Origin: Acidimicrobiia bacterium
Lineage (GTDB): Bacteria; Actinomycetota; Acidimicrobiia; IMCC26256; PALSA-610
Assembly: GCA_038228615.1 (NCBI GenBank)
Contig: JBBRPC010000002.1
Span: forward strand, 1-52,929
Direction of reading: 5' to 3'
Length of the DNA: 52,929 nt
Shown one piece after another: positions 4,374 through 50,096 of the stretch (the first letter of the stretch is position 1; the number at the start of each line of letters is the position of its first letter). The translations under genes and the position numbers were made by a program. The notes under the pieces were generated by a model, which had not been told where the DNA came from, did no database searches, and worked only from the letters and a program-made list of their open reading frames with translations.

Positions 4374-5459
4374 ATGGAACAGGCGAACGACGCGGAGCTG
4401 ATCGCGCGATCTCGTGACGAACCGGCCGCCTTCGCCGTGGTCTACGAGCGTTACGCCACCACGATCTACCGCTATGCCGCACGGCGCATTGGCGCGAGCG
4501 ATGCTGAGGAACTCATGGCCGAGACGTTCCGCATCGCGTTCGAGCAACGTGCGACGTATGACACGAGCCGACCATTTGCACGTCCGTGGCTGTATGGCAT
4601 CGCCACCAACCTTGTAGCGCGGCACTATCGCACCGAGACGCGACGACGGCGCGCGACGGCGCGGCTCGAAGCGGGCGACAACACGATAAAGGATGGCAGT
4701 GACCGCGTCGTCGACGCGATCGCAGCTGCCAACCTGCTGCCCGATGTCGTCACAGCAATCAATCGCCTCACGACGGGCGATCGCGACGCGTTGCTGCTCC
4801 ACGTGTGGGAGCAACTCCCCTATGAGGGGGTCGCGGCAGCTCTCGGCATCCCGGTCGGCACGGTGCGGTCGCGCATCAACCGCGCCCGCGCAAAATTGCG
4901 CGAACTCACCGCCGTCACCGACGAACAGCTGGTGCACGCAGATGTTTTTACCGCGAACAAGGAGCGACTCATGACGACGATTACCGGCAACGAACAATCA
5001 GAGGTGTTCGACCACCGCTCGCAGATGTATCCGCGGCTCGCGTATCGCGACGAGCATGCCGCGCTCGAATATCTCACGCGTGTCTTCGGCTTTACAGAGC
5101 GACGCGAGGCCCGTGTCGGGGGCAAGACACCCGACGGATACGACATGGGCGACCACATGCTCGCCTGGCTCGAGTTCGGTGCCGGGCTCGTCATGATCGG
5201 CCATGTCAACGAGGAGGTCCACCGCATCCGGAGTCCGCGCGACGTCGGAAGTGCGACAACGATGATCAACGTCGAGGTAGACGACGTCGACGCGCACTAC
5301 TCGCGAGCAGTCACAGAGGGCGCCGAGATCACCAAGGCACTCGAGGACACGTGGTATGGCGGGCGCGTGTACGAGGCGGCAGACATCGAGGGTCACCAGT
5401 GGCACTTCCAGGAATCTCATGAGCACATCCGCACCCGCGGTGGAGCGGTGCCGACCTAG
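4374..5459 (+). CDS. ECF-type sigma-70 factor fused in frame to a C-terminal VOC (glyoxalase/bleomycin-resistance fold) domain
   Basis: Region 2 reads FAVVYERYATTIYRYAARRIG...RPWLYGIATNLVARHYR and region 4 reads LTTGDRDALLLHVWEQLPYEGVAAALGIPVGTVRSRINRARAKLRE. The frame continues without a stop into a VOC domain (YPRLAYRDEHAALEYLTRVFGF...EDTWYGGRVYEAADIEGHQWHF). The start could instead be GTG 4338. Confidence 0.75.
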   Translation: MEQANDAELIARSRDEPAAFAVVYERYATTIYRYAARRIGASDAEELMAETFRIAFEQRATYDTSRPFARPWLYGIATNLVARHYRTETRRRRATARLEAGDNTIKDGSDRVVDAIAAANLLPDVVTAINRLTTGDRDALLLHVWEQLPYEGVAAALGIPVGTVRSRINRARAKLRELTAVTDEQLVHADVFTANKERLMTTITGNEQSEVFDHRSQMYPRLAYRDEHAALEYLTRVFGFTERREARVGGKTPDGYDMGDHMLAWLEFGAGLVMIGHVNEEVHRIRSPRDVGSATTMINVEVDDVDAHYSRAVTEGAEITKALEDTWYGGRVYEAADIEGHQWHFQESHEHIRTRGGAVPT

Positions 5460-5533
5460 GTGTGAAGCCAGCGATCCCGTAAGGGTCGCCGATACATGTT
5501 GGCGACACTTGCGCGTATCGGCGAAACTGGTGC

Positions 5534-6034
5534 ATGACTGCACCCGACAACGTCGTCGAACTTCCACTCCGCGAACAGTTCGACGCGTTCATCGACGAAC
5601 ACCGTGCCGTTTTGCACGACTGTCTCGAGGGATTGACCGAAGACGAAGCTCGACGTCGACTCGTCGATTCCGACACCACGTTGCTGGGGCTCGTCAAGCA
5701 CGTGACGTTCGTCGAACGTGTGTGGTTCGAAGAATGCGTCACCGGGAAGTCGCGCGCCGAACTCGGCCTGGTAGCTGGTCCTCCCGAGTCGTTCGTGCTC
5801 GACGACGGCGACACGATCGAATCGGTGCGCGCCACATTCCGAACGACGTGCGAACGATCCCGTGCCGCTAGTGCGTCAATCGGTCTCGACGATGTGGTGA
5901 CCGGGAATCGTCGCGGCCCGTTGCCATTTCGTTGGGTCTTGTTGCACGTATTACGTGAATTCGCCGGGCATTGTGGGCACGCCGACATCCTGCGTGAGCA
6001 GATCCTCGCCGCGCGCCGAAGGCAGAATCGGTAG
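5534..6034 (+). CDS. DinB-family / DUF664 (mycothiol-transferase-like) protein
   Basis: The product contains TLLGLVKHVTFVERVWFEE and LLHVLREFAGHCGHADILREQI, which are typical DUF664 motifs. Confidence 0.75.
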   Translation: MTAPDNVVELPLREQFDAFIDEHRAVLHDCLEGLTEDEARRRLVDSDTTLLGLVKHVTFVERVWFEECVTGKSRAELGLVAGPPESFVLDDGDTIESVRATFRTTCERSRAASASIGLDDVVTGNRRGPLPFRWVLLHVLREFAGHCGHADILREQILAARRRQNR

Positions 6035-9283: not shown

Positions 9284-10138
9284 TCAGATGCCGAGGTTGT
9301 CGCAAATTTCTCGCGTTGCGGTGGCCAGGTTCAATGTGAAGAATTGAAAGCCGGGGACGCCTGCCGCGCGAAGTTCTTCGCAGAGCTTCGTCGCTTCCTC
9401 GACGCCGACGGCGCGAATGGCGGCGGGACCTTGGTCTTCGACTGCGTAGAGCTTGGCGGCCAGCCATTCGGGGAAGTCTGAGCCCTGGAGTTGGGCCATG
9501 CGCGCGATGCTGGCGATGCTGGTGGCCGGCATGATTCCAGCGATGACTGGTTTCGTGACGCCGCGCGTTGCGAGCCCGTCGATGAGGTCGAAATAGTGAC
9601 GGGCCTCGAAGAAGAATTGCGTAATTGCGAAGTCGGCAGCGTCAAGTTTTGCCGCAGTGTGATCACGATCTGCTGCGATGCTTGGAGACTTCGGGTGTGG
9701 CTCGGGATGGGCAGCAACACCGATGCTGAAATCTCCGACGGTCCGCAACAGCGCAACGAGTTCGCTCGAGTATTGCAGTTCGCCGGGGGGACCCTCGTGT
9801 CCTGCCGGCGGGTCACCGCCGAGTGCCAGAATGTTTTCAATTCCGGCAACGCGGTATTGCTCAATCAGCGAGAGTAAGTCGGCTTTGGTGTGCGCCGCGC
9901 ATGTGAGATGCGGCATCGCCGTAATACCCATTGCGTTGTTGATTTCGACCACGAGATCGTACGTGCGACCTCGAGTTGAGCCGCCAGCACCGTAGGTAAC
10001 TGACAAGTACGACGGATCGCGAAGTTTGAGTTCGGCCAACGTACGCGCGAGTGTCGCTTCGCCTTTCTCATCGCGCGGCGGGCCGAATTCGAATGAACAA
10101 GTAGGTCCGGCGCGAAGAAGTTCAGGGATGTGGGCCAT
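9284..10138 (-). CDS. metF: Methylenetetrahydrofolate reductase
   Basis: The product contains SFEFGPPRDEKG...SVTYGAGGSTRGRTYDLV...MPHLTCAAHTK...ILALGGDPP, the canonical MTHFR motifs. Confidence 0.9.
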   Translation of the reverse strand: MAHIPELLRAGPTCSFEFGPPRDEKGEATLARTLAELKLRDPSYLSVTYGAGGSTRGRTYDLVVEINNAMGITAMPHLTCAAHTKADLLSLIEQYRVAGIENILALGGDPPAGHEGPPGELQYSSELVALLRTVGDFSIGVAAHPEPHPKSPSIAADRDHTAAKLDAADFAITQFFFEARHYFDLIDGLATRGVTKPVIAGIMPATSIASIARMAQLQGSDFPEWLAAKLYAVEDQGPAAIRAVGVEEATKLCEELRAAGVPGFQFFTLNLATATREICDNLGI

Positions 10139-38178: not shown

Positions 38179-39480
38179 CTAGGAATCGTTTTCCGGATGT
38201 TCTCCAGTCGCGAGTTCGCTGACCCGTTGGCGAGAATCGAGTGCCGCGGTCCGGTAGATCCCGCTCGCCATATACGACTGTTCCTGATTGCGTCGAGCTT
38301 CGTACACGGAGGCTCGTACCCCGTGCGCGTATCGGTTGTTGGGATCAGCGAGTACTGCAAGTTCCGCGAAATGACACGCCAGGCGCAAATCGTTCGCTTC
38401 TGCAAGTGTTGCCGCACGAGCCGCGAGGTTTGCGGCGCCTCCGCACAAATCTGCAGTTTGTTGTGCGATTGCCACGTCGGTCGCTGGTTTGAGATTCGCG
38501 GGGTTGCCGTCGTACCAGCCTCCGTAGAGTCTCCAGAGATTGCGCACCACGAACTCTGGCTCGTCGTACGTGGGCTGGAGGTACGGCTTGCTGGCGAGAT
38601 CATCTGGCAGTCGCACCGAGTGCACGACATCGATCAGGCGTGCTCCTTGATTCATGAGGTCGAGTACCTGCGTGTGAAGCGACTCCAACGCAGTCGCAGT
38701 GTCAAGCAGTACGGTCTGTACGTACTCGGCGCCGCCAACGGCTGGCCCGTGCGCCGGAAGCATGAGCTCGGGTTGCAGCGCAGCCATATCTCGCAGTGCC
38801 ACCGCCCAATCCCACGCGAAACGTTGAACTTTCTGTGGATTGCCGGCGTTCGGAAATTGCCAAATGAACAGATCGCCAACGCACACTGCGCGGTGACCGG
38901 GCACCCATGCCCAGGTGTGATCGTCGGTTTCGCCTCGTGCGTGATGCAACTCGAATCGCATATCGCCAACACTGAGCTCCGCGGTGTCGCGATATTCCGT
39001 GTCGGGATAGCGAAAATCACTGGGAAACGTTGGTGCGGGGAGTCGGAATTGGCGCATGTTGATGTGGCCGTTGTAGCCGTTGGTGATGCCGTACCGGTCG
39101 AAACGGTGCGCGACTGCTTCATGCCCGACAAACGTGATGCTGCGATCGCCGCGGTCCGCCGCCTCAGCTTCAAATGCTCCAGAACCCGTGACGTGATCAA
39201 CGTGGCCATGGGTGTAGACGGCGGTGTCGACGTGGTCAGTTGTCCACGCGCGGAGCGCTGTGAGCACAGTTGGCGCGAAGAGTTCGTGCGATACGTCGAA
39301 CAGCGTCAGCCCGTTGCCAGTTGTGAACGCGATGACGTTGGAAAAAGCTTCGATCAGTGCCACGCCTTCTGCCACTTCGTGCAGCGTGCCGTTCGTGGGC
39401 GACATGAGGCCGTGCATCGTTGTGGGTTCGAGGCCCTTGATGATGCGAGCGGATCGTTCAAGCATGTCTGTCATGAGCAC
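38179..39480 (-). CDS. MBL-fold metallo-hydrolase of the alkyl/aryl-sulfatase (SdsA1/BDS1-like) family, lacking the SCP2 tail
   Basis: The product contains YTHGHVDHVTG (HxHxDH). ARGETDDHTWAWVP and WQFPNAGNPQK are typical of alkyl-sulfatase MBL domains. A helical dimerisation-domain-like C-terminus follows. Confidence 0.7.
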   Translation of the reverse strand: MLMTDMLERSARIIKGLEPTTMHGLMSPTNGTLHEVAEGVALIEAFSNVIAFTTGNGLTLFDVSHELFAPTVLTALRAWTTDHVDTAVYTHGHVDHVTGSGAFEAEAADRGDRSITFVGHEAVAHRFDRYGITNGYNGHINMRQFRLPAPTFPSDFRYPDTEYRDTAELSVGDMRFELHHARGETDDHTWAWVPGHRAVCVGDLFIWQFPNAGNPQKVQRFAWDWAVALRDMAALQPELMLPAHGPAVGGAEYVQTVLLDTATALESLHTQVLDLMNQGARLIDVVHSVRLPDDLASKPYLQPTYDEPEFVVRNLWRLYGGWYDGNPANLKPATDVAIAQQTADLCGGAANLAARAATLAEANDLRLACHFAELAVLADPNNRYAHGVRASVYEARRNQEQSYMASGIYRTAALDSRQRVSELATGEHPENDS

Positions 39481-39608: not shown

Positions 39609-40748
39609 TTAGAGCGCTGCAGGGTTCTTACGGCAGTAGCTAGTGATTGTGACACCGCCACCAGTCGCAAGCTTCTTCAGGGCAACGAAACCGTAGGTGG
39701 TGATGATCTTGCTCCCACCGTGGTTGCAGATGTAGCCAGCGCCGGCGTTATCGACACCGACAAAACGCATCACGTCGTTGTAGCTCGGCGATGTCGTCTT
39801 TGCCACGTTGAAGACGTAACGAGTGCCGAGGAAATGTGTCGGCGTTTCGTTGATCGTCGAACTCGATGCCTTGACTCCATTGATCTGGCCGAGCGTGGTG
39901 CCGTTGCGAAGGTCTGCGATGACTGCCTTCGATGCTGCGGTCCACTGTGCATACGAAAACGGAAGGATCGCATTCGTCTTGTCAGCAGCGAGTACACCAC
40001 GTGCGTCGTGTTCTTCGAGGAACGTCGACAGGTGCGAACCGTTGCAACCGGCATCGATTGTGGCCCCGTTGAGGATCTTCGAGTTGAAGAACGAGTACGT
40101 GCCAGAACTTGTCTGCGGCGCGTACTTCTTGATTGTTCCTGCGGTGCCGCCAACTGACGCCCAGTCCGAAACGAAGGGAAGGCCGGTGGTGGGGTCGCAG
40201 GTGTAGATGTCGATCAAGTTCTGTTGTGTCAGGTTCACCGGCGAATGTGAGCCAGCGAAACGGGCCCACGACAGACCGTCGAGTGCGTAGGCGTAAAACT
40301 CATCGCTTGATGGGTCCGTGACTTTTTGGCCTCGTGAGGAACGAGAAAAGTCGATGCAGCCGGTACCGTCGTTGTTGAGGGCGGTGATACCCGCACTCGA
40401 ACCGTTGGGCGGCAGGTTGCCTGCGTCGTAGGTGATCGCGGCACAGTTTCCGTCGGCAACTGTTTCGGTGCCTGCGGGGAACGGCGCACTCACGACCGGC
40501 GGGACGTTGATGACGCGGTCTTTGGGGCTTTCTGTGTTGACGGTGCTGTCAACGTTGTACTGGTTGTGCAAGCCGTACATCATCCAGTACGTCGTGTCGG
40601 AACCGACGGCCGTCAGGGTGGAACCCGGATTTGATGCGCCGGGTACTGCGTGTGCTGGCGATGCCATGAGCGCGCTCCCGGCGATTCCGGTGAGCACGCC
40701 CGCTGTCACCGCGAGCTTCTTCAAGGAAATGTTCACGTTTGCCTCCAT
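39609..40748 (-). CDS. Secreted PstS-like (PBP_like_2) substrate-binding protein, paralogue 1 (no C-terminal anchor)
   Basis: I chose the start at ATG 40748. The signal peptide reads LAVTAGVLTGIAGSALMASPAHA, followed by LTAVGSDTTYWMM, which is typical of phosphate-type binding-protein folds. Confidence 0.6.
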   Translation of the reverse strand: MEANVNISLKKLAVTAGVLTGIAGSALMASPAHAVPGASNPGSTLTAVGSDTTYWMMYGLHNQYNVDSTVNTESPKDRVINVPPVVSAPFPAGTETVADGNCAAITYDAGNLPPNGSSAGITALNNDGTGCIDFSRSSRGQKVTDPSSDEFYAYALDGLSWARFAGSHSPVNLTQQNLIDIYTCDPTTGLPFVSDWASVGGTAGTIKKYAPQTSSGTYSFFNSKILNGATIDAGCNGSHLSTFLEEHDARGVLAADKTNAILPFSYAQWTAASKAVIADLRNGTTLGQINGVKASSSTINETPTHFLGTRYVFNVAKTTSPSYNDVMRFVGVDNAGAGYICNHGGSKIITTYGFVALKKLATGGGVTITSYCRKNPAAL

Positions 40749-40875
40749 TGCCACACCCCTGTGGCGTGACACCAACATCAAAACAGGGGTACATGAACGG
40801 CAAACCGCCAATACGGCAACGTCGAAGTGAAGTGAACATAAACAACTGTGCTCGTTCGAGAAGTTGCGGCGGTGG

Positions 40876-41880
40876 CTACAGCGCGCCGGGCAGCAAGCGA
40901 GCGAATTGCTCGAACACCAGCCACATAGCGACGACGAGCAGTGGTGTTGCGATCAGCCACGTCGCATGGGGCTTCCAACGTTTGTAGAGGATCACCGCAC
41001 CAACGGTGATCGCCAACAACAGCTGCAAGCTCAACAGCAGCGGGAACCAGGCGTTGCTTTCTCCGGAGAGCCCGAGCTCATCTGCACGAACCTGGAACTT
41101 CGATGGCGTGAAGTTCTTCGCGCTACCGATCAGCTCCGCCTGAACGACGTAGCGATCGCTTGCGACAATCGCCGGATCCGAAGTCACCAACGTGAGCGTG
41201 TTGATGTTGTACGACGCTGGCCCGGTGCCGGTGGTCAGGGTATTAAAGATTCGGGCGTCGTTCGCTTTGGCCGCTCCCGTTGCGAAGACGCGGTAGGCGA
41301 CGTCACCGAACGCTGTGGAGAAGTGGATTTCCTGGCCTTTGCGGAGCGTGTTGATATCGGCGCATGGAGCGCCACCGGTGGCACGGCGGCATATGACAAC
41401 GGAGTTGCCATATTGGCCTGGAAGCGGTGTGGATCGAACATGCCCTGGTCCCCGCATGGTTTGTGACGACGTGCTCCCCTCCACGACAACTTCAGAAACG
41501 CCAATGTTTGCAATCCTCATCCAAGCAACTGGACTACCGACTGCAATGGGCTTCGCCGTTCCGAGCGACCCGTCTGGGTTATGGACAAATTGCGGGGGCA
41601 GTTGAAACGCAGCGGCTTCGTTGCGAAAGGCGCGTTGCAGATCGGCCTGCGAACGATTGTGGCTCAATGCTGTGCCTGCAAAAAGAAAGAGCGCGAGACA
41701 GAGGCACAACACCGCGAAGCCGGCAAGTGAGTGACGAACGATTGCGAAGATCGAGTGCGGCTGAGACTCGCGTGGAGGTGCCTTGGGTTGTGTCTGGCGA
41801 GATGTCCGAACGGTTTCGCGATCTGCGACGACCACGGTGTTGCTTTCGCGAACTTGGGTATCGGTGGCGACAGTTGTCAC
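40876..41880 (-). CDS. Sortase-fold membrane protein with a degenerate active site (His->Arg, Cys->Ser) and extra C-terminal TM helices
   Basis: MRIANIGVSEVVVEGSTSSQTMRGPGHVRSTPLPGQYGNSVVICRR...GQEIHFST..GDVAYRV...NTLTLVTSDP...DRYVVQAEL parallels the sortase signature IP.IG....V.EG.....L..G.GH...T..PG..GN....GHR...GD.I.......Y.V...LTL.TC.P...R. The GTG at 41880 overlaps the upstream stop (GTGA). The ORF is open to 41916. Confidence 0.6.
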   Translation of the reverse strand: MTTVATDTQVRESNTVVVADRETVRTSRQTQPKAPPRESQPHSIFAIVRHSLAGFAVLCLCLALFLFAGTALSHNRSQADLQRAFRNEAAAFQLPPQFVHNPDGSLGTAKPIAVGSPVAWMRIANIGVSEVVVEGSTSSQTMRGPGHVRSTPLPGQYGNSVVICRRATGGAPCADINTLRKGQEIHFSTAFGDVAYRVFATGAAKANDARIFNTLTTGTGPASYNINTLTLVTSDPAIVASDRYVVQAELIGSAKNFTPSKFQVRADELGLSGESNAWFPLLLSLQLLLAITVGAVILYKRWKPHATWLIATPLLVVAMWLVFEQFARLLPGAL

Positions 41881-43970
41881 GCGAGGGCCACTTTCTTGAG
41901 TTGTTGGCGACGCCATCGCAACAGTCGCTGTATTGCAGGCCAGGAACCGCTGATGATCGCTGCGATTGCACCGAGAAGCAGCAGAAGCGGCAAGGCGATG
42001 TGTGAGCTAATGGGTCCGATACTTGCGATTGGTGTCCAACTCGGTGCCGTGAGTGCAAAACGCAGCGGCGCAGGTTGGGTCGCCTGCTTACTCGTTGGGG
42101 CGTCGGTTGGCGACGAAACCAGCCCGGCACCATCGGTGGTGAACGTCGCCGATGAACCTCCGGAGCCGCCACAGCACGCGCTGCCCAGTCCGCTCGCGTT
42201 ATAAATGGTGGTTGGTGTCCCGAAGTCGGTGACACTCGTGGGAGTGAGTGACGTCGATGTTGTGGTGGTTTTCGGCGCTGTTGACGTTGTCGTTGGAGTC
42301 GTGGTCGATGTCGTGGTGGGCGTACCAGGCGCGGCGATCGTTTTGATGACGCTCGCGGCCGTGGCTATTTGCGCCGCCGGAAGTGGGAGATACCCGAGCG
42401 CGAGATCTTGTTGGCCAGCACCGATCGCGTAGTTCAACAGCTGTTGCAAATGCGCTGCTTTCACCGGATCTCCAACTTGCACTTGATTCGCATCGACGGT
42501 GAACACCGATGTGCGAACCATGGCGTAGTCGATCTTGGTGAGTGGATACGCCGCTGGCGCAGTGGAGGTCACGTCGGGAACCAATGCCCCGTCGACGAGG
42601 TGCAATGCTTGCACTCCGGCAAGGAGCCCTGCCTGGTCCGGCGCCACTGCTTTGCCTGCGCCGTTCACGAGGCTTGCCATCGGTAGTCCGAAGCGAACGG
42701 CGTTGCTTCGGGAGAGCAGACCTATGTAGCCCTGATTGCTTGACTGCGTTCCGTCGGGACGGGCTTGGTAGAAGAGTCGGCGGGCGGCGTCGATTTCGCC
42801 AGTATGAGGAACAAATCCCGAAGAATCCGAAGCTGCAATTTCGAAATTCTCGACCGGGTACACCTTGTTTTTGAAGTCGGGCATCACACGTACACCGTGG
42901 ATGTCGGTACCTGCGAGCAACAGTTTGGAGTTCGGATCGTGATACATCCATTCGGTGGTGATGTGCGTGTCGGCGTTTGCTTCGGCGCGCAGCATCGGCT
43001 GCGATGCGCCGCCGGTGGGCCAGTTGTGGGTCGGATTCAATGCAAGGAACTCAGGATCTTGGAAGAAGCCAAGGAGTTGGGAGTCGGTCACCAGGCGGGT
43101 GACGAGGCGCGGCGACAGTGTCATGTCGGTGATTTGTTGGCCGGTAACCGCGTCGCTGATGTTGAAAGCGAATACAGCAGCGTTCAAGCTGATCGGCGCG
43201 TATTGAATCGAAGCCGGATTCGTGGCCGTGGCGAGCTCAGCTGGCGTTGCGCCAAGTGACGTGAACGCGAGGTCGGTCAGGCCGGCGAGCATGTTGGAGC
43301 GTGCATTGTTCGACGACGATTCGGTGAAGTCGATCGACAACGCTTTCGCCCCAGTGCATTGCGATGCGTCCCACTGGTAGGTCTGTTGAGCGACTGAGGC
43401 CTCGCCTCCGATTGTCGCGTCGAAGTTGATCGGAATCGGACATGTGGCGCTGGATTGTGCGAAGGTAATTGGAGCGACAACGGCGCCGGGAGGCAAACCG
43501 TTCGCTGGGATCGTGGTGTTGCTATCGAACGCGACGATCGAACACGGGGTTGTGCTGCTACAACTCAAATCGGAAAGCTCGGATGCATCTCGAACTTCAA
43601 AATTCGCGCTGCCCGAAAGGTCGAGTCCCGTGACGCCATTGCGGACCGTGTTCCCGCCCGCCGAACTGGGGAACGGGTCGGCGGTGTAACAGTCTGCGAG
43701 CGATTGCGGGTTCGCTTTGCACTGGTAGATCCACACAGCGTCGCTGCCGAATTGTGTCGCCGCTGCGAATCCTGTCCAGTTCACGGTGACTGCCTGCGTC
43801 ACGAGCCCTGTTGAGGGGGTGACGGTCAAGGTCGGTCCGGTTGCCGCGTTCGCACCATTGGTGCCAGTGTCGCCCGGTTGTGGATTGAACGCGACGAAGG
43901 CCGTACACAATGCCGCGAGTACGCAATAGCGGCGCGTGAAACGGACGCGCGCAGAAGGAATCGTTTTCAT
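41877..43970 (-). CDS. Secreted multidomain protein: neocarzinostatin-like Ig domain, PstS-like binding domain, Thr/Pro-rich linker, then C-terminal TM anchor with a basic tail
   Basis: I chose the start at ATG 43970 (MKTIPSARVRF...). PTLTVTPSTGLVTQAVTVNWTGF...YQC....C...C.....CSIVAF matches the NCS-family pattern. IDFTESSSNNARSNMLAGLTDLAFTS and GYLPLP are PstS-like. The linker reads PTTTSTTTPTTTSTAPKTTTTSTS and the tail reads IALPLLLLLGAIAAIISG...RLLRWRRQQLKK. Confidence 0.6.
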   Translation of the reverse strand: MKTIPSARVRFTRRYCVLAALCTAFVAFNPQPGDTGTNGANAATGPTLTVTPSTGLVTQAVTVNWTGFAAATQFGSDAVWIYQCKANPQSLADCYTADPFPSSAGGNTVRNGVTGLDLSGSANFEVRDASELSDLSCSSTTPCSIVAFDSNTTIPANGLPPGAVVAPITFAQSSATCPIPINFDATIGGEASVAQQTYQWDASQCTGAKALSIDFTESSSNNARSNMLAGLTDLAFTSLGATPAELATATNPASIQYAPISLNAAVFAFNISDAVTGQQITDMTLSPRLVTRLVTDSQLLGFFQDPEFLALNPTHNWPTGGASQPMLRAEANADTHITTEWMYHDPNSKLLLAGTDIHGVRVMPDFKNKVYPVENFEIAASDSSGFVPHTGEIDAARRLFYQARPDGTQSSNQGYIGLLSRSNAVRFGLPMASLVNGAGKAVAPDQAGLLAGVQALHLVDGALVPDVTSTAPAAYPLTKIDYAMVRTSVFTVDANQVQVGDPVKAAHLQQLLNYAIGAGQQDLALGYLPLPAAQIATAASVIKTIAAPGTPTTTSTTTPTTTSTAPKTTTTSTSLTPTSVTDFGTPTTIYNASGLGSACCGGSGGSSATFTTDGAGLVSSPTDAPTSKQATQPAPLRFALTAPSWTPIASIGPISSHIALPLLLLLGAIAAIISGSWPAIQRLLRWRRQQLKKVALA

Positions 43971-44022
43971 CAGCACGAAGGAAACCACGCGCACCCTCGC
44001 GGTACGAGAGCCGACGTGAGTT

Positions 44023-44066
44023 GTTCATCTGTCATTCAACTCGAGGCAAGGTGTCGGTCATTCGCG
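44023..44066 (+). promoter_or_regulatory. Candidate PHO box: four in-phase 11-nt units in the divergent pst promoter region
   Basis: The units are GTTCATCTGTC (44023), ATTCAACTCGA (44034), GGCAAGGTGTC (44045) and GGTCATTCGCG (44056). The fourth unit fits the actinobacterial PhoP direct-repeat consensus G(G/T)TCAYYYR(G/C)G exactly, the first fits it at 9 of 11 positions, the second carries only the TTCA core, and the third does not fit. Confidence 0.4.
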
Positions 44067-44070
44067 TGGT

Positions 44071-45108
44071 GTGGAATGCCTCCGCGTGACGACTATTGCG
44101 ATTTCCGACGTGTCGGTTCCCGACGAATCGCCGATCGCCATTCAGGTAACTCGCAACGGACGCGACCGCGTGTATCGCTCGACCGGATATGCGGCGGGTT
44201 GGGTCACTCTGGTGTTGATGGGGCTTATCGGCGGGTTCTTGTTGTACCGATCGTTCGACGCGTTCCGATACGAAGGATTGCGATTCTTCACGGAAACTCG
44301 CTGGTTACCGAATGCATCCGGTGGTGTGTTCGGTATCGCTGCGTTGCTACTTGGCACGGTGCTGATTGCTGCGGTTGCGTTGGTGTTGGCAGTGCCGATT
44401 GCCATTGGCACCGCGCTGTTTATCACCGAGTATGCGCCCCGACGATTGCGCAAAGTTCTGACGTCCGCGATCGACCTGTTGGCTGCTGTTCCCAGTCTGA
44501 TTTACGGCATCTGGGGCGCATCGATTTTGCAAAGCAAGGTCGTTTACGTCAGTCGGTTCCTCTCAGATCACTTCGGTTGGTTCCCCCCATTTCATACGAC
44601 GCCGTTTTCGGGTTCGGGGCATACGACCTTGGCCGACTTTTCGGCATCCGCGTTTCTTGCGGGAATTGTCGTGGCGTTGATGAGTTTGCCGATTTGCACT
44701 GCGGTGATCCGCGAAGTGTTCTCGCAGGCTCCACCCGGCGAAAAGGAAGGTGCGCTGGCGTTGGGTGCGACTCGTTGGGGCGTAATCCGTGATGTGGTGT
44801 TGCCGTTCGGAAAGGGCGGCATCATCGGCGGGTCGATGTTGGGACTTGGTCGTGCCCTTGGTGAGACGGTCGCAGTGGCGTTGATCATTTCCCGAACGAC
44901 CAATGTGCACAACCTGTTGCAGTTGTTGAAGACGGGCGGCAACTCGATCGCCGCGACGATCGCGCGGAGCTGGTCAGAAGCGAGTGGTATCCAGACGAGC
45001 GCGCTGATGGCTGCGGGATTGGTGTTGTTCGGCGTCACGCTGGCCATCAACGCCGCTGCGTCCTTTGTTGTCGCGCGGTCGCGTTCCGGCGCTGCGACGG
45101 AAATCTGA
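44071..45108 (+). CDS. pstC: Phosphate ABC transporter permease PstC
   Basis: The product has six TM segments. FFTETRWLPNASGGVFGIAALLLGT...LFITEYAPRRLR...IDLLAAVPSLIYGIWG is the typical PstC signature. The start is uncertain (44071 or 44086). Confidence 0.85.
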   Translation: MECLRVTTIAISDVSVPDESPIAIQVTRNGRDRVYRSTGYAAGWVTLVLMGLIGGFLLYRSFDAFRYEGLRFFTETRWLPNASGGVFGIAALLLGTVLIAAVALVLAVPIAIGTALFITEYAPRRLRKVLTSAIDLLAAVPSLIYGIWGASILQSKVVYVSRFLSDHFGWFPPFHTTPFSGSGHTTLADFSASAFLAGIVVALMSLPICTAVIREVFSQAPPGEKEGALALGATRWGVIRDVVLPFGKGGIIGGSMLGLGRALGETVAVALIISRTTNVHNLLQLLKTGGNSIAATIARSWSEASGIQTSALMAAGLVLFGVTLAINAAASFVVARSRSGAATEI

Positions 45109-45114
45109 TCGCAC

Positions 45115-46257
45115 ATGACCACGATCGATTTGGCTAATCCCGATGTCGAAGAGGACCCGGATCCGTCCGATGCCGTAGCGCCGCTTGGCGAGGCACTGAT
45201 TCGTATCCGGCGCTTGGATCCCGATTCCGTGATCACCTATTGCGGCGCGGCATTCTCCGCGCTCGCGTTGGCGTGGTTGATCTACGAACGGTTCGCGCCG
45301 TTCTCCGGAGGTCTTGGTTTTCTCGTTGTGGCTTGGACGGCATTTTGCATCATCGTGTATTCGCTGTGCCGTCAGCAGTGGGGCAAGATCGCGGCACGTG
45401 ACCACTTGGTGAGACTCCTAGTTGCAAGCATGGCAATGCTGGCATTGATCCCACTCGGCTCGATTGTGTTCACGGTCGTGCAACGTGGTTACCACGGATT
45501 ACAACCGTCGTTTCTGACGCACACGATGGCTGGCGCCGCAAGCCTCAGCAAGTTCTCGCAAGGCGGCGCATGGCATTCAATTGTCGGAAGTTTCGAGGTC
45601 GTGGGGATCGCGATGTTGATTTCGGTGCCGCTCGGCGTGATGACTGCTGTGTTCTTAAATGAGATCGGCGGCCGCTTGGCACGGCCTGTGCGAACGTTGA
45701 CCGACGCGATGAGCGCGGTTCCTTCAGTGGTCGCCGGTCTCTTCATCTTCGCGGTGTTGATTCAGCCGCAGTATCTCAAAGCCACTGGATTCGCGGGAGC
45801 CCTTGCGATTTCGATCTTGATGGTTCCGACGGTCACCCGTACAGCCGAGGTCGTGTTGCGTTTAGTGCCGGGCGGCCTCCGCGAAGCATCGTTTGCGCTT
45901 GGCGGGAGCGAGTGGAACACGACCAAACAAGTTGTTTTGCCTACGGCGCGCACGGGTCTGGTGACAGCAGTTGTGCTCGGAGTCGCTCGGGTGGTCGGCG
46001 AGACCGCGCCTCTGATCATCACCATGATCGGTGCGCAACAATTCAATGGGAACCCGTTTCGTGGGCTGCAGGACGCTCTGCCGTTGTTTATCTGGAGCGA
46101 CAAAGTCAATTCGACCGGACAAGGAGTCGTGGACACCTGGATGTGGAGCGGTGCATGCGTACTGCTTGCCATCGTGCTCGTGTTGTTTGTCGCGGCTCGT
46201 GTGTTGGGAAATCGTTCGGGCCTCGGAGCTGTTCCGCGCGTTCGACGTCAGCGTTAG
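45115..46257 (+). CDS. pstA: Phosphate ABC transporter permease PstA
   Basis: The product contains [34 protein letters not shown] and the EAA-like motif [23 protein letters not shown]. Confidence 0.85.
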
Positions 46258-46268
46258 GAGAACGCCGT

Positions 46269-47090
46269 ATGACCATTCTCGAAGAGGTCTCGCTTGAGTC
46301 CGACTCCGCAAATGTCGCGAGTGCATTGACTGCCCGTTCAGTCTCAGCCTGGTTTGGGAACCACAAGGTGTTGGAGCGCGTGTCGCTTGAGATGCGACCA
46401 AATGAAGTGACCGCGCTCATCGGCCCTTCGGGTTGCGGCAAGTCGACGTTCTTGCGGACGTTGAACCGCATGCACGAGCTTGTTCCTGGGGCGTCACTTG
46501 CTGGTGAGATATTGCTCGATGACACCGACATCTATCGTGACCCGGTCGCAGTCACCGAGATTCGGCGTCGCATCGGCATGGTGTTCCAGAAACCAAATCC
46601 GTTTCCGGCAATGAGTGTCGCCGAAAATGTTGTCGCCGGCTTGAAACTTTGCGGGCACAAGGTCGATCGCTCGTCGCGCGACGACCTTGTACAACATTGT
46701 TTGAGCCGGGCGGGATTGTGGAACGAGGTGAAGAACCGCCTTCATGACAATGGCGGCGCGTTGTCTGGGGGGCAACAGCAACGTCTGTGCATTGCCCGAT
46801 CGCTCGCGGTGCGGCCCGACGTGTTGTTGATGGACGAACCGTGTTCGGCCCTCGACCCCACCTCGACTCGCAGGATCGAAGAAACGATCGACGAACTCCG
46901 CGAGGAAGTCACGATCGTGATCGTTACCCACAACATGCAGCAGGCGCAGCGCGTGTCACAACGATGCGCGTTTTTCTTAGCTGGGGAAAACGAGCCGGGA
47001 CACGTCGTTGAGGCGGGTCGAACCGAAGCCATGTTTACGAATCCGCAAGACCAGCGCACGCTCGACTACGTCCGAGGCCGATTCGGATGA
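46269..47090 (+). CDS. pstB: Phosphate ABC transporter ATP-binding protein PstB
   Basis: The ATG at 46269 follows AGGAG. Walker A is GPSGCGKST. The product continues [41 protein letters not shown] and a C-terminal YVRGRFG. Confidence 0.92.
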
Positions 47091-47121: not shown

Positions 47122-48771
47122 ATGATTCGTTCTCTTCATATCAGCCGAGTTCTTGTGGCGTGCGCCATCTCGGGTGGAGCGATTGGCGTTGTGGCGGTCG
47201 AGCCGGCGAGTGCCAGCGTGACGCTGAGCGGCGCTGGTTCAACCTGGAGTTCGATCGCCGTGAGCCAATGGCGAGCCGACGTGCACGGTAGTGGTCTCAA
47301 CATCAACTATGACGCGTCTGGATCGACCGCAGGGAGAACCTTCTTTATCAACAAGCAGGTCGATTTCGCGGTCTCAGAGATCCCATTCTCAGCCGCGTAC
47401 CGAGATAGCACCGGCACCGTCGTGACAAATGAAATAGCGCAAGTTCAGAGCTCAGGTCGGACCTATGCCTATATGCCGATCGTCGCAGGTGGCACTTCAT
47501 TCATGTACCACCTCGATGTGGGGGGAAACCGCATCACGAGCCTGAATCTCAACGCCGACACGATCGCGAAGATGTTCACCGGCGTGATCACGTCGTGGAA
47601 TGATCCAGCGATCAAGGCAACGAATCCCACGATTCCTTTGCCTGCGCTACCAGTGCGACCTGTCGTGCGAGGTGATGGTTCCGGGACTACCGCGCAATTC
47701 ACCGCGTTCATGGCGAGCCAAACGCCCGCAGTATGGAACGCGTTCTGTAGCAAACTCGGGTTGAGTACGCCATGTCCTTCGACGTCGCTCTACCCGATTG
47801 CGCAAGGTCAAGTAGCGCAAAACCTTTCGGATGGCGTTGCGAACTACGTCGCGGCTTCGTACAACAACGGTGCGATTACCTACGTTGAGTACGGCTACGC
47901 GAAGCAACGCAATTTTCCTGTTGCGTCTGTAGAAAATGCGGCTGGCAAATTCACGCAACCCACGGCCTACAACGTCACGGCAGGGCTCAAGGCCGCCACG
48001 TTGAACGCTGACAAGACCCAGAACCTTGGTGGCGTCTATACGAACGGTGATCCCTATACATATCCCGTATCGAGCGACTCGTACATGATCGTGCCCACAA
48101 GTACCGCGGCACCGTTCAGCGTTGCCAAAGGCGACGTACTGCGTCAGTTCATTGCGTATTTTATTTGCGCGGGCCAGCTGAAAGCTGAACAACTCGGCTA
48201 CGCGCCGATGCCGCTCAATCTGCGCCAGGCAGCCTTCGATTCTGCCTCGAAGATTCCTGGGACCGCGCCCTTGCCGCCACTCGACAACGCCCACTGTCCT
48301 GGCAGTCAAAATAAGCCACCACCTCCACCGCCCACAACAGCGCCACCCACAACTGTCCCCGGTGGCGGTGGCGGTGGCGGCGGCGGTGGTGGCGGCGGCG
48401 GTGGCGGCGGTGGCGGCGGTGGCGGCGGAACAACAGTCGCAGGCCAGAGCTCGAACTCGCTCGGTGGCGGGTCGTCGGCCACGTATGCAACGACACCTGG
48501 TGGTCAGCAGATCGGAACAACGACGCCGGGTGCACCCGGAACCCGAACGGTGCGTGATCCGAAGACTGGAAAGCTTGTCACCCTCGCCACGGATGGCTCC
48601 GGTGTTGTGTTGGAGCCGATCGCCGCGGTCGAAACGGTGACGCCGCCCAACGACGACGGACCCGTGTCTCCGTACGTGATCGTGTTTACTGTCGGCGTAT
48701 TGCTTGCGTTGGTGTTCGCGCCCCCGGTCGTTGCGTTCGCGTTGAGCAAGAAACGGGCAGCGCGCTCGTAA
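47122..48771 (+). CDS. pstS: PstS-like phosphate-binding protein tethered by a Pro/Thr plus 23-Gly linker to a C-terminal TM anchor
   Basis: The signal peptide ends ...EPASA/SV. SGAGSTWSSIAVSQW...NYDASGSTAGRTFFINKQVDFAVSE and GYAPMPLNL are PstS motifs. The linker reads PPPPPPTTAPPTTVP(G)23, and the protein ends in the TM VIVFTVGVLLALVFAPPVVAF plus KKRAARS. Confidence 0.75.
   Translation: MIRSLHISRVLVACAISGGAIGVVAVEPASASVTLSGAGSTWSSIAVSQWRADVHGSGLNINYDASGSTAGRTFFINKQVDFAVSEIPFSAAYRDSTGTVVTNEIAQVQSSGRTYAYMPIVAGGTSFMYHLDVGGNRITSLNLNADTIAKMFTGVITSWNDPAIKATNPTIPLPALPVRPVVRGDGSGTTAQFTAFMASQTPAVWNAFCSKLGLSTPCPSTSLYPIAQGQVAQNLSDGVANYVAASYNNGAITYVEYGYAKQRNFPVASVENAAGKFTQPTAYNVTAGLKAATLNADKTQNLGGVYTNGDPYTYPVSSDSYMIVPTSTAAPFSVAKGDVLRQFIAYFICAGQLKAEQLGYAPMPLNLRQAAFDSASKIPGTAPLPPLDNAHCPGSQNKPPPPPPTTAPPTTVPGGGGGGGGGGGGGGGGGGGGGGGTTVAGQSSNSLGGGSSATYATTPGGQQIGTTTPGAPGTRTVRDPKTGKLVTLATDGSGVVLEPIAAVETVTPPNDDGPVSPYVIVFTVGVLLALVFAPPVVAFALSKKRAARS
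48361..48429 (+). repeat. 69-nt GGY triplet tract encoding 23 consecutive glycines
   Basis: Codons 48361-48429 are all GGT, GGC or GGA, read directly in the pstS-like frame. Confidence 0.95.
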
Positions 48772-48884
48772 GGATCACCAAGAGTGAACACCACGCTGCG
48801 CTCATGCGAATGGGCGGTGAAGTGCTGGTGAAGACGCACGCTAGATAGTGCCAATTCGCATTCGATTTCCATACGGTAGGAACC

Positions 48885-50096
48885 ATGAAATCATTCCAGA
48901 GAAAACTCGTATCGACGGTGTTAGTCGCGCTCTGCGCTGGCCCGTTACTCGGCGTATCAAGTGCGCACGCCGCGGGCCCGGCGAACAATCAATTCGCGAG
49001 CTCCGAGGTGCTGGCGAGCTCTGGTTCGATCACTCGCTCAAACACCGGTGCGACGGCGCAGGCCGGCGAACCGGCACCGATTACGGGAGATCCGTTCGCA
49101 ACGATTTGGTTTTCGTGGACGGCACCGACGACCAAGACGGTCACCTTCGACACGATCGGATCGGATATCGACACGGTGTTGTCGGTCTACACCGGAACGT
49201 CGCTTGCGGTGTTGGTTGAAGTTGCAAGCAACGATGACGGATTTGGCTGCGATTCTACAAGCGCACTGCAATTTCAGGCGGTTGCAGGTACCACGTATCG
49301 GATACAGATCGGAACGACGGATCCAAGTGATCAGTCAGACAATCTGATGCTCACGTGGAACTGGGCTCGAGGTGCGGAGGCAGCAAACGACAATATTGCT
49401 CAGGCGACCGCGGAAACGGGCACCCAAACGATCCATGGAACGACGAACAATTCGACTCCCGAACTCGGTCAGAACATCAATGAGAACGAAGGCGAATCAT
49501 CGGTCTGGTACAAGATCCCGGCAGCGCTACCCACCGAGGTCGATCTGACGTTGGCGACCTCGAACACGCCGAACATCTTCGGATTCCAACCGGCAGTGAG
49601 TGGCGAAGTTTGGTACGGAACCAACCCCGCGACGGCCAGTTTTTCAGCCACGATTGTTGCCGATAGTGCCGGAGCAATCAGCGCCCACATCGTCACTCCA
49701 GGAACCATCTGGATTCGTATCTTCAGTTCCTCGATATGCGAGCAAGGCAACTTCACACTCAACATGGACGCACGTACCGGCACTGTTGTCACGACGTCGT
49801 ACGCGCCCAATGAGTTTCAGCTGCTGAGCGATATTTCAACCCGGTTGGGATGGACGCCCGAACAGCTGCAACATGATGCTGCACTGATCTGGCAGTTCAT
49901 CTACGCCATTTCTGGTATCACCGTACCGACGCCGGTGCCAACGCCTGCTCCCGGTTCAGTCCCCGTGAGCTCTGTGTGGAGCGCATCGGAAATTAATCAG
50001 CTCACGTTGTTGAACAAGCAGTGGGTGCTCCCAAGCACCCATACCCAACGGGTAGCTGCGAACGTGCTGATGTTCATCGTCGGTTTGGGCGGCTAG
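48885..50096 (+). CDS. Secreted hypothetical protein with two PPC-like (pre-peptidase C-terminal-type) beta-sandwich modules
   Basis: The signal peptide reads LVSTVLVALCAGPLLGVSSAHA. NNQFASSEVL..SGSITRSN.GATAQAGEP....WFSWTAP...VTFDT.GS.IDTVLSVYTG.S...L..VASNDD is a recurring secreted-protein module. I recognised no catalytic motif. Confidence 0.45.
   Translation: MKSFQRKLVSTVLVALCAGPLLGVSSAHAAGPANNQFASSEVLASSGSITRSNTGATAQAGEPAPITGDPFATIWFSWTAPTTKTVTFDTIGSDIDTVLSVYTGTSLAVLVEVASNDDGFGCDSTSALQFQAVAGTTYRIQIGTTDPSDQSDNLMLTWNWARGAEAANDNIAQATAETGTQTIHGTTNNSTPELGQNINENEGESSVWYKIPAALPTEVDLTLATSNTPNIFGFQPAVSGEVWYGTNPATASFSATIVADSAGAISAHIVTPGTIWIRIFSSSICEQGNFTLNMDARTGTVVTTSYAPNEFQLLSDISTRLGWTPEQLQHDAALIWQFIYAISGITVPTPVPTPAPGSVPVSSVWSASEINQLTLLNKQWVLPSTHTQRVAANVLMFIVGLGG

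Follow-up and report, generated by a model that had tools for sequence, protein, structure and literature searches.

Few surface enzymes of Gram-positive bacteria have been studied as closely as the sortases, which are regarded as transpeptidases that cannot do without a Cys/His/Arg triad. What, then, is the role of a sortase homologue that has neither the cysteine nor the histidine and is encoded in the middle of a pst locus? The question is raised by a minus-strand gene, here called the pseudo-sortase gene, in a 52,929-nucleotide stretch of DNA from an Acidimicrobiia bacterium (assembly GCA_038228615.1, contig JBBRPC010000002.1, positions 1 to 52,929), which we refer to as the window. Our analyses indicate that its product is very probably a pseudoenzyme dedicated to pst loci. 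The fuller reading that we favour is that it is the catalytically dead descendant of a three-transmembrane (TM) class-E-type actinobacterial sortase, and now serves a Pst-type locus as a dedicated accessory membrane component, a docking partner. We regard this as falling just on the probable side, while the docking mechanism, taken by itself, comes a little short of an even chance.

The protein is recognizable as a sortase both by sequence and by predicted fold. The Pfam Sortase model (PF04203) matches residues 133-262 with 57.7 bits (E 1.3e-15, cutoff 26.6), where residue numbers, here and below, refer to the 346-amino-acid (aa) form. The top-ranked NCBIfam class is the class E sortase (NF033747), yet its 69.4 bits lie below the cutoff of 160. 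An AlphaFold2 (AF2) model built on 40 homologues has a mean predicted local distance difference test score (pLDDT) of 87.7 and is predicted to hold the eight-stranded beta-barrel that defines the sortase fold. Foldseek matches the model to SrtD (4d70, TMt 0.81) and to SrtE (5go5, TMt 0.78, root-mean-square deviation 3.2 A; 5go6, TMt 0.80, root-mean-square deviation 2.8 A). Pfam, the alignment, Foldseek and a tabulation of the family place the sortase-fold domain at residues 105-265 (41122..41604, minus strand), in which the GPGH and PGQxGN motifs are kept.

The catalytic positions were located by HMMER alignment to 5go6 and 5go5. The segment GNSVVICRRATGG aligns over GNFAVAGHRRTYG of the class E sortase and puts Arg177 (codon CGC, 41386..41388, minus strand) at the catalytic His site, with ICRR where the canonical sequence is GHRT. 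'LTLVTSDPA' aligns over 'LTLVTCEPE' and puts Ser246 (codon TCG, 41179..41181, minus strand) at the catalytic Cys site, with TLVTS where the canonical sequence is TLxTC. The third residue of the triad, the active-site Arg, is still present, as Arg255 (codon CGC, 41152..41154, minus strand), where 'SDRYVVQA' aligns over 'SHRLIVWA'. The residue that follows GPGH, Val160, occupies the position of the class E specificity Tyr, which was located via the equivalent of F92 in 4d70. Read in this way, the sequence argues against transpeptidase activity.

The original prediction had described a sortase homologue with Arg in place of His and Ser in place of Cys within an otherwise preserved signature. All three parts of this description hold: the Pfam match lies above its cutoff and the AF2 model superposes on SrtD and SrtE (TM ~0.8), the codons and the 5go6 alignment agree on both replacements, and GPGH, PGQxGN, the TLxT motif and Arg255 are all aligned. 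It had furthermore excluded a single-base sequencing error. We agree, as TCG is two substitutions away from either TGT or TGC and the substitutions recur throughout the family.

The domain is held in a predicted three-TM architecture. The N-terminal TM helix (residues 56-83; 41668..41751, minus strand) extends into a stalk that reaches about residue 102, the two forming a single helix (56-102) in the AF2 model. Behind the domain lie a second TM helix at residues 288-310 (40987..41055, minus strand; AF2 helix 287-313), present in all family members, and a third at residues 318-337 (40906..40965, minus strand; AF2 helix 316-341), both with pLDDT >90. The protein ends in a predicted extracytoplasmic C-terminus, RLLPGAL (40879..40899, minus strand), for which a tabulation of 146 representatives gives the family consensus R-L-L-P-[AGSN]-T-L-COOH. 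It therefore has every feature of what we define here as the tail-bearing three-TM subclass, namely the N-terminal TM helix, the two C-terminal TM helices and the LLPxx(L/Y) end. The two C-terminal helices had been predicted to be an extra that canonical sortases lack. The helices themselves are real by AF2, but their supposed absence from canonical sortases is wrong, as 80 canonical sortases of Acidimicrobiia carry them.

The start of the gene allows two readings. In the open reading frame (ORF) list the gene spans 40876..41916 (minus strand) and encodes 346 aa when read from the ATG at 41916; an in-frame GTG at 41880-41878 would give a 334-aa protein (40876..41880) and shares bases, in the sequence GTGA, with the stop codon TGA (41879-41877) that ends the upstream 705-aa ORF. 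Homologues begin 'MTT(V/I)..', in agreement with the GTG, and either start is possible.

Are the two replacements peculiar to this genome? A sequence search recovered 70 homologues, which public databases annotate as 'sortase' or 'sortase A'. Among the 40 that were aligned, down to 29% identity, Cys at the TLxTC site occurs in 0/40 and Arg stands at the His site in all but one, while the N-terminal TM helix, the two C-terminal TM helices and the '(R)LLPxxL' end are found in 40/40. Searched with a profile, 1.84 billion cluster representatives yielded 2184 matches at E<=1e-30. The best 150 of these are all full-length and score >275 bits, and residues were tabulated for 146 of them. The former Cys site is Ser in 103 of these representatives, Ala in 29, Gly in 6, Thr in 6, Leu in 1 and Cys in 1; the former His site is Arg in 113, His in 24, Lys in 4, Ser in 3, Ala in 1 and Pro in 1. 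Arg255 is kept in 101/146, and a Tyr follows GxGH in 12/146. At the C-terminus Pro is kept in 143/146, Thr in 102/146 and the terminal Leu in 97/146.

The same comparison can be made among members with a known genomic location. His, Cys and Arg are each invariant (100%) in 126/126 canonical relatives from genomes, whereas 39 Cys-less genome-derived members keep His in 15%, Cys in 0% and Arg in 77% (30/39). GPGH and PGQxGN are conserved at ~100% in these 39, and the relaxed positions are concentrated near the active site. Ala replaces the former Cys in 16/39 of the loci (41%), and Ala or Gly make up ~24% of the cluster representatives. The position after GxGH is L/V/M/F, and never Tyr, in the 39 members, and Y/M/F in the canonical relatives. 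The Cys-less sortases are monophyletic and comprise at least ~145 clusters at 50% identity, and neither Pfam nor NCBIfam has a curated model specific for them. Judged by this pattern of conservation, the Cys-less clade appears to be a pseudoenzyme family under purifying selection.

The association with pst genes is the second line of evidence. In the window the minus-strand gene order is the 705-aa ORF (41877-43994), the pseudo-sortase gene and a gene for a further binding protein (39609-40811), divergent from pstC (44071-45108), pstA (45115-46257) and pstB (46269-47090) on the plus strand; the first two match Pfam BPD_transp_1 and the third ABC_tran. We refer to the products of the two minus-strand neighbours as pbp705 and pbp400. 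A first genome scan, with a profile from a 12-sequence alignment, gave 80 loci that were typed by tblastn and alignment. Here 31/34 Cys-less tail-bearing loci have pstCAB and genes for homologues of pbp705 and pbp400 as neighbours, versus 0/46 canonical loci (GHRTT, TLTTC; Fisher p=4e-19). Five further metagenomic Cys-less members, at ~29-37% identity where measured, are all in pst-type loci (5/5), each with a large upstream gene that overlaps the start. Pooled with a second scan described below, pst linkage is found for 36/39 Cys-less versus 4/126 canonical sortases (p=3e-28), in loci that come from pattern-seeded scans, hence from biased sampling, and mostly from metagenome-assembled genomes (MAGs).

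Over ~30 loci the stop/start overlap with the upstream gene is 4 nt in 22 and 1 nt in 6, and almost every upstream ORF closes with a TM helix and then basic residues. The arrangement extends to cultured organisms. Searches with the partner protein found Phycicoccus badiiscoriae, where the pseudo-sortase has Thr for His, Ser for Cys and the end RMLPAAL, and Kitasatospora sp. GAS204A, where it has Arg and Ser and ends LLPNLY. Yinghuangia aomiensis and Y. soli share the arrangement, with the motif TLVTA in Yinghuangia. Taken together, intact full-length Cys-less homologues with conserved synteny occur in >30 genomes, down to 28% identity.

These results bear out what had been predicted about the surroundings of the gene. 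The GTGA overlap with the 697-aa PstS-like gene is confirmed on the sequence and supports translational coupling of the two genes; the unit does lie inside a pst locus, with pstC, pstA, pstB and a tethered PstS alongside; and the upstream protein is C-terminally anchored and PstS-like, given its PstS fold by AF2 and Foldseek and its C-terminal helix. The expected co-occurrence with PstS-like genes in other genomes holds across the family to 28% identity, cultured Actinomycetes included. A canonical His/Cys pair in the orthologues would have pointed to a decaying copy; what is found instead is the loss of Cys, and mostly of His, family-wide.

The partner protein, pbp705, is encoded by 41877..43994 on the minus strand and has 697 aa from an ATG at 43970 (705-aa ORF). 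Its AF2 model (pLDDT 81) shows a signal/TM N-terminal helix, a beta-rich domain at ~47-170, for which homologues have Pfam Neocarzinostatin matches, a PstS fold at 185-545, a disordered Thr/Pro stretch at 555-657, a C-terminal helix at 659-696 and a basic tail. Foldseek matches it to PstS-1/PstS3 of M. tuberculosis and to E. coli PstS (1pc3, 4lvq, 1quk; TMt 0.77-0.82); a sequence search against PDB chains gave no match. Its score against TIGR00975, 40.8 bits where the cutoff is 205, falls below the equivalog level. The anion-binding loop 'RAEANADT' aligns with 'RGDGSGTT' of a second tethered PstS in the window (PstS587, described below), so that SGT has become ADT; with the SGT loop diverged, pbp705 may bind phosphate in a manner other than the canonical one.

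The C-terminus of pbp705, with its linker, hydrophobic helix and basic tail, looks like the design of a sortase substrate minus the LPXTG/LAXTG motif. No L[AP]xTG motif was found in pbp705 or in the ~30 partner proteins examined, and there is no LPXTG/LAXTG sorting signal anywhere in the window. A fossil LAXTG in the partners was considered and rejected, as there are just loose subgroup patterns ([AV]LTA[GSP]; G-D-x-R/H-h-h-h-P).

On the other side of the pseudo-sortase gene, pbp400 (39609..40811, minus strand; probable start 40748, 379 aa) resembles PstS family 2, although its 42.6 bits against NCBIfam TIGR02136 are below the cutoff. It has a cleavable-looking signal peptide, and neither a lipobox nor a C-terminal TM helix. 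Its C-terminus, C-R-x-(N/D)-P-x-x-L-COOH, is conserved in the homologous loci (L001-L013), as is the position of the gene. We observe a resemblance between this C-terminus and the LP(A/G)xL-COOH end of the pseudo-sortase.

Where did such a protein come from? A single protein among the 146 representatives, P0239, combines an intact GHRTT/TLTTC pair with the two-TM tail and ends in RLLPANY. Its locus, in an Acidimicrobiia MAG (L088), reads pstC, pstA, pstB, a 524-aa PstS, a 428-aa PstS and the sortase gene, with a 4-nt overlap. The 428-aa PstS (4718-6004) ends '...SQLAFTGGPELGLWLGSGFGLVAAGSWVRRRVRR', a class E LAXTG sorting signal of the textbook kind, and the 524-aa PstS ends in PLGRTG, a hydrophobic stretch and RRRTLRK. 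The PstS signals in three related genomes are LALTG, LAFTG and LAYTG. With the L088 PstS as query, no further pairs of a LAXTG-PstS and an active sortase were found beyond the same three close relatives. Like pbp705, the LAXTG-bearing PstS of L088 has lost the SGT loop ('RGQAGGAT'), and the other PstS of L088 and that of the window keep DGSGT. The sortase-coupled PstS paralogues may bind something other than orthophosphate.

The second genome scan, seeded with P0239 and typed by alignment, gave 80 loci (L089-L168). His, Cys and Arg are intact, and the two-TM tail and the LLPxx(Y/L) end are present, in 80/80; only four are pst-linked. The hosts are Microthrixaceae, Iamiaceae and other Acidimicrobiia, and many of these genes adjoin one for an ABC-type (ATP-binding cassette) ATPase. 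As the tail and the terminal motif occur in 80 canonical sortases, they are ancestral to an Acidimicrobiia subclass and not a novelty of the dead clade. The idea that the LLPxTL end is a pseudo-substrate specific to dead enzymes was rejected for the same reason. We found no published description of the architecture of a two-TM tail with LLPxx(Y/L)-COOH for class E sortases.

In a neighbour-joining tree of the sortase domain (~160 columns) the 39 Cys-less members form one clade, sister to the tail-bearing canonical sortases, with the tail-less canonical sortases outside. Among canonical sortases, the pst-linked ones come nearest to the dead clade, with a mean identity of 43.5% versus 45.7% within the clade. 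That four pst-linked canonical relatives stand behind a PstS ending in LAXTG suggests that the dead clade descended from an active PstS-anchoring sortase.

From this we propose the following mechanism. The ancestral sortase would have been catalytically active, with a PstS paralogue as its substrate. Cleavage would then have been lost on both sides, with the active site dead and the sorting motif of the partner gone, while recognition was kept. Translational coupling would ensure that the pseudo-sortase is made in step with its partner, and the former substrate groove would hold the juxtamembrane anchor region of the partner, uncut. An enzyme-substrate pair would in this way have become a stable membrane complex, which may arrange the tethered binding protein, and perhaps also the untethered downstream PstS, next to the PstCA permease. 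The existence of intact pst-linked relatives with a genuine LAXTG PstS strengthens the docking inference.

Several observations weigh against this proposal. No LAXTG-like motif is conserved among the partners; what recurs, where their TM helix begins, is a loose G-[DS]-x-[RH]-h-h-h-P pattern, which offers no clear recognition element. In identity the LAXTG-bearing PstS is nearer to PstS587 (35%) than to pbp705 (26%), so the partners are not related by simple orthology. One MAG has three Cys-less copies (L017, L019 and L021) that are not linked to pst; these keep the His and lie in a sortase-NlpC/P60-exosortase context. In IMCC26256 (L009) the pseudo-sortase stands before its partner and not after it. 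Finally, two apparent fusions of a binding protein and a pseudo-sortase (P0135 and P0119; L169 and L170) were rejected as Rosetta-stone evidence, since their assemblies contain many fragmented genes and P0119 has no TM helix between its two extracytoplasmic domains; they are probably frameshift artefacts.

Could the protein act on the Pst system in another way? It might be a regulatory or protective pseudoenzyme, either a decoy that shields PstS anchors from a housekeeping sortase or a link between the binding protein's state and Pho signalling. Its dedication to pst loci would be the same as in the docking model, related genomes encode active tail-bearing sortases, a PhoU gene and a PhoPR-like two-component pair adjoin one of the clusters (L170), and a PHO-box-like repeat lies in the promoter. 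However, the partners carry no LAXTG for a housekeeping sortase to use, so protection seems needless, and the protein has no signalling domain and a short, unconserved cytoplasmic N-terminus. We consider this unlikely.

Slightly less likely again is that the dead site now forms a pocket for an anion or a carboxylate, in a membrane receptor that retains a free binding protein. The pocket would be lined by Arg177 (77% conserved, and new), the ancestral Arg178 and Arg255, with Ser or Ala in place of the Cys, and its ligand would be the protein's own LLPxTL-COOH tail, the C-R-x-N-P-x-x-L-COOH end of pbp400 or phosphate. If true, this would be a new non-covalent, non-lipid tether for the binding proteins of ABC transporters in a monoderm cell.

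The fold might also have been kept for its second substrate site: by binding lipid II or the stem peptides of peptidoglycan, it would tie the Pst machinery non-covalently to the wall or to places where wall is being made. It is established that canonical sortases bind lipid II or a cross-bridge amine nucleophile, and the barrel and its loops are conserved here. But no data point specifically in this direction, and it would not account for why the gene is so strictly coupled to a single TM-anchored PstS paralogue, which makes this reading very unlikely.

We give even less weight to a 'serine sortase', in which Ser246 would be the nucleophile, aided by an Arg or by the GPGH His, and would cleave or transfer the tethered binding protein. 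Ser or Thr does stand at the Cys site in 109/146 representatives, Arg255 and His159 are largely conserved, and the C-terminus of the partner is substrate-like in architecture. That said, 36/146 representatives have Ala, Gly or Leu at the site and 16/39 loci have Ala, with the same pst context and overlap (for example TLVTA in Yinghuangia, and Acidimicrobiaceae L020-L032). With Ala or Gly at the former Cys in a quarter or more of the members and the context unchanged, serine-nucleophile chemistry is unlikely as the conserved function. Furthermore, the general base has changed from His to Arg or Lys in 80% of representatives, His159 is equally invariant in canonical sortases and so not newly recruited for catalysis, and the LAXTG cleavage motif is gone from the partners. 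The original prediction had left room for a mechanistically different processing enzyme, and it is this part of it that the ~24% of representatives with Ala or Gly disfavour. The last alternative, that an ordinary sortase gene is decaying or was misread in sequencing, would explain the absent catalytic residues but can be set aside, given an intact ORF, intact homologues in >30 genomes to 28% identity, the same substitutions family-wide with structural motifs at ~100%, conserved synteny and a Ser codon two changes from a Cys codon.

The docking reading can be compared with systems that have already been described. The closest are the class E sortases (SrtE1/SrtE2 of Streptomyces coelicolor and SrtE of S. 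avermitilis and Thermobifida fusca; PDB 5go5/5go6, 9m2g; PMC5148588). The pseudo-sortase shares with these the beta-barrel, the N-terminal TM anchor, the GxGH and PGQxGN loops, TLxT and the catalytic Arg. Unlike them, it is without the Cys and the His, has two extra C-terminal TM helices and no LAXTG substrate nearby, and occupies a fixed slot in pst operons. The specificity Tyr of class E, Tyr229 of SrtE1 in the beta3/beta4 loop, recognizes the Ala of LAXTG (PMC5148588), whereas this residue after GxGH is Val in the pseudo-sortase and L/V/M in most of the clade.

Its sister group, the tail-bearing canonical sortases of Acidimicrobiia (for the pst-linked ones L088/L089-L092, e.g. MAG GCA_031362155.1), has the same three-TM architecture and LLPxx(Y/L) end. 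Those in L089-L092 even share its slot, with a 4-nt overlap behind a PstS paralogue and next to pstCAB. The difference is that they keep His, Cys and Arg (80/80) and that the PstS of the pst-linked ones ends in LA(F/L/Y)TG, a TM helix and RRR; most are not pst-linked.

Dedicated systems of one sortase and one substrate are known, such as SrtB with IsdC and the class GN 'marine sortase' (TIGR03784), which has one target, and in these the sortase is catalytically active and the target has a cleavable motif. The pseudo-sortase likewise adjoins, and is apparently specialized for, one C-terminally anchored protein. In contrast, both halves of the reaction have been lost in its pair. A conceptual analogy, and that alone, is offered by CspC/CspA of Clostridioides difficile, pseudoproteases that work with partner proteins (PMC7200643): a protease-family fold has been kept by selection after the loss of catalytic residues, although there the fold is that of subtilisin and the process is spore germination. 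What is sortase-like about the pseudo-sortase is its fold and, probably, its recognition of peptides, and no more.

A few further features of the window and of related loci are worth recording. Downstream of pstB lies the second C-terminally tethered PstS, PstS587 (47122..48771, plus strand; 549 aa from the translation; Pfam PBP_like_2, 125.8 bits), in which a canonical PBP_like_2 domain with a DGSGT loop leads into a Pro/Gly linker, and a TM helix with the tail KKRAARS ends the chain. The linker consists of ~10 Pro and then an unbroken run of 23 Gly. A PHO-box-like direct repeat, TTCATC-N5-TTCAAC (44024..44040, plus strand), is found in the divergent promoter, 76 bp long, that separates pbp705 from pstC, and a second (48816-48832, minus strand) between PstS587 and the next, 403-aa ORF. 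The pattern TTCAHC-N5-TTCAHC, derived from the Streptomyces PhoP box consensus, has 2 matches in the window versus 0.12 expected, for a pattern that was picked post hoc. The 403-aa ORF that follows this second repeat and the pst cluster (48885-50096, plus strand) encodes a secreted protein with a hydrophobic C-terminus and no Pfam match. Directly downstream of pbp400, on the same strand, is a gene for an alkyl-sulfatase-like metallo-beta-lactamase (Alkyl_sulf_dimr and Lactamase_B; 38179-39480, minus strand).

Several Acidimicrobiia MAGs (L017 5551-11909; L088 6001-12649; L092) have a tail-bearing sortase gene followed by NlpC/P60, a small ORF, an EpsH-family exosortase and a GT2 glycosyltransferase. 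A sortase and an exosortase within one gene string are unusual, and near the string of L017 a protein (9372-9980) ends in a PEP-CTERM-like signal.

In the searchable full-text literature we found no description of a sortase pseudoenzyme, of a sortase in pst operons or of a LAXTG-anchored PstS. As far as that literature goes, this is apparently the first sortase pseudoenzyme family, and transporter binding proteins are a new substrate class for class-E-type sortases. The pair of pseudo-sortase and tethered PstS paralogue would be an example of an enzyme-substrate pair turned into a non-covalent partnership. It bears on the question of how binding proteins are retained at the membrane in monoderm Actinobacteria that do without lipoprotein anchors, and the cultured hosts (Phycicoccus badiiscoriae, Kitasatospora sp. 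GAS204A and Yinghuangia spp.) make the family experimentally tractable.

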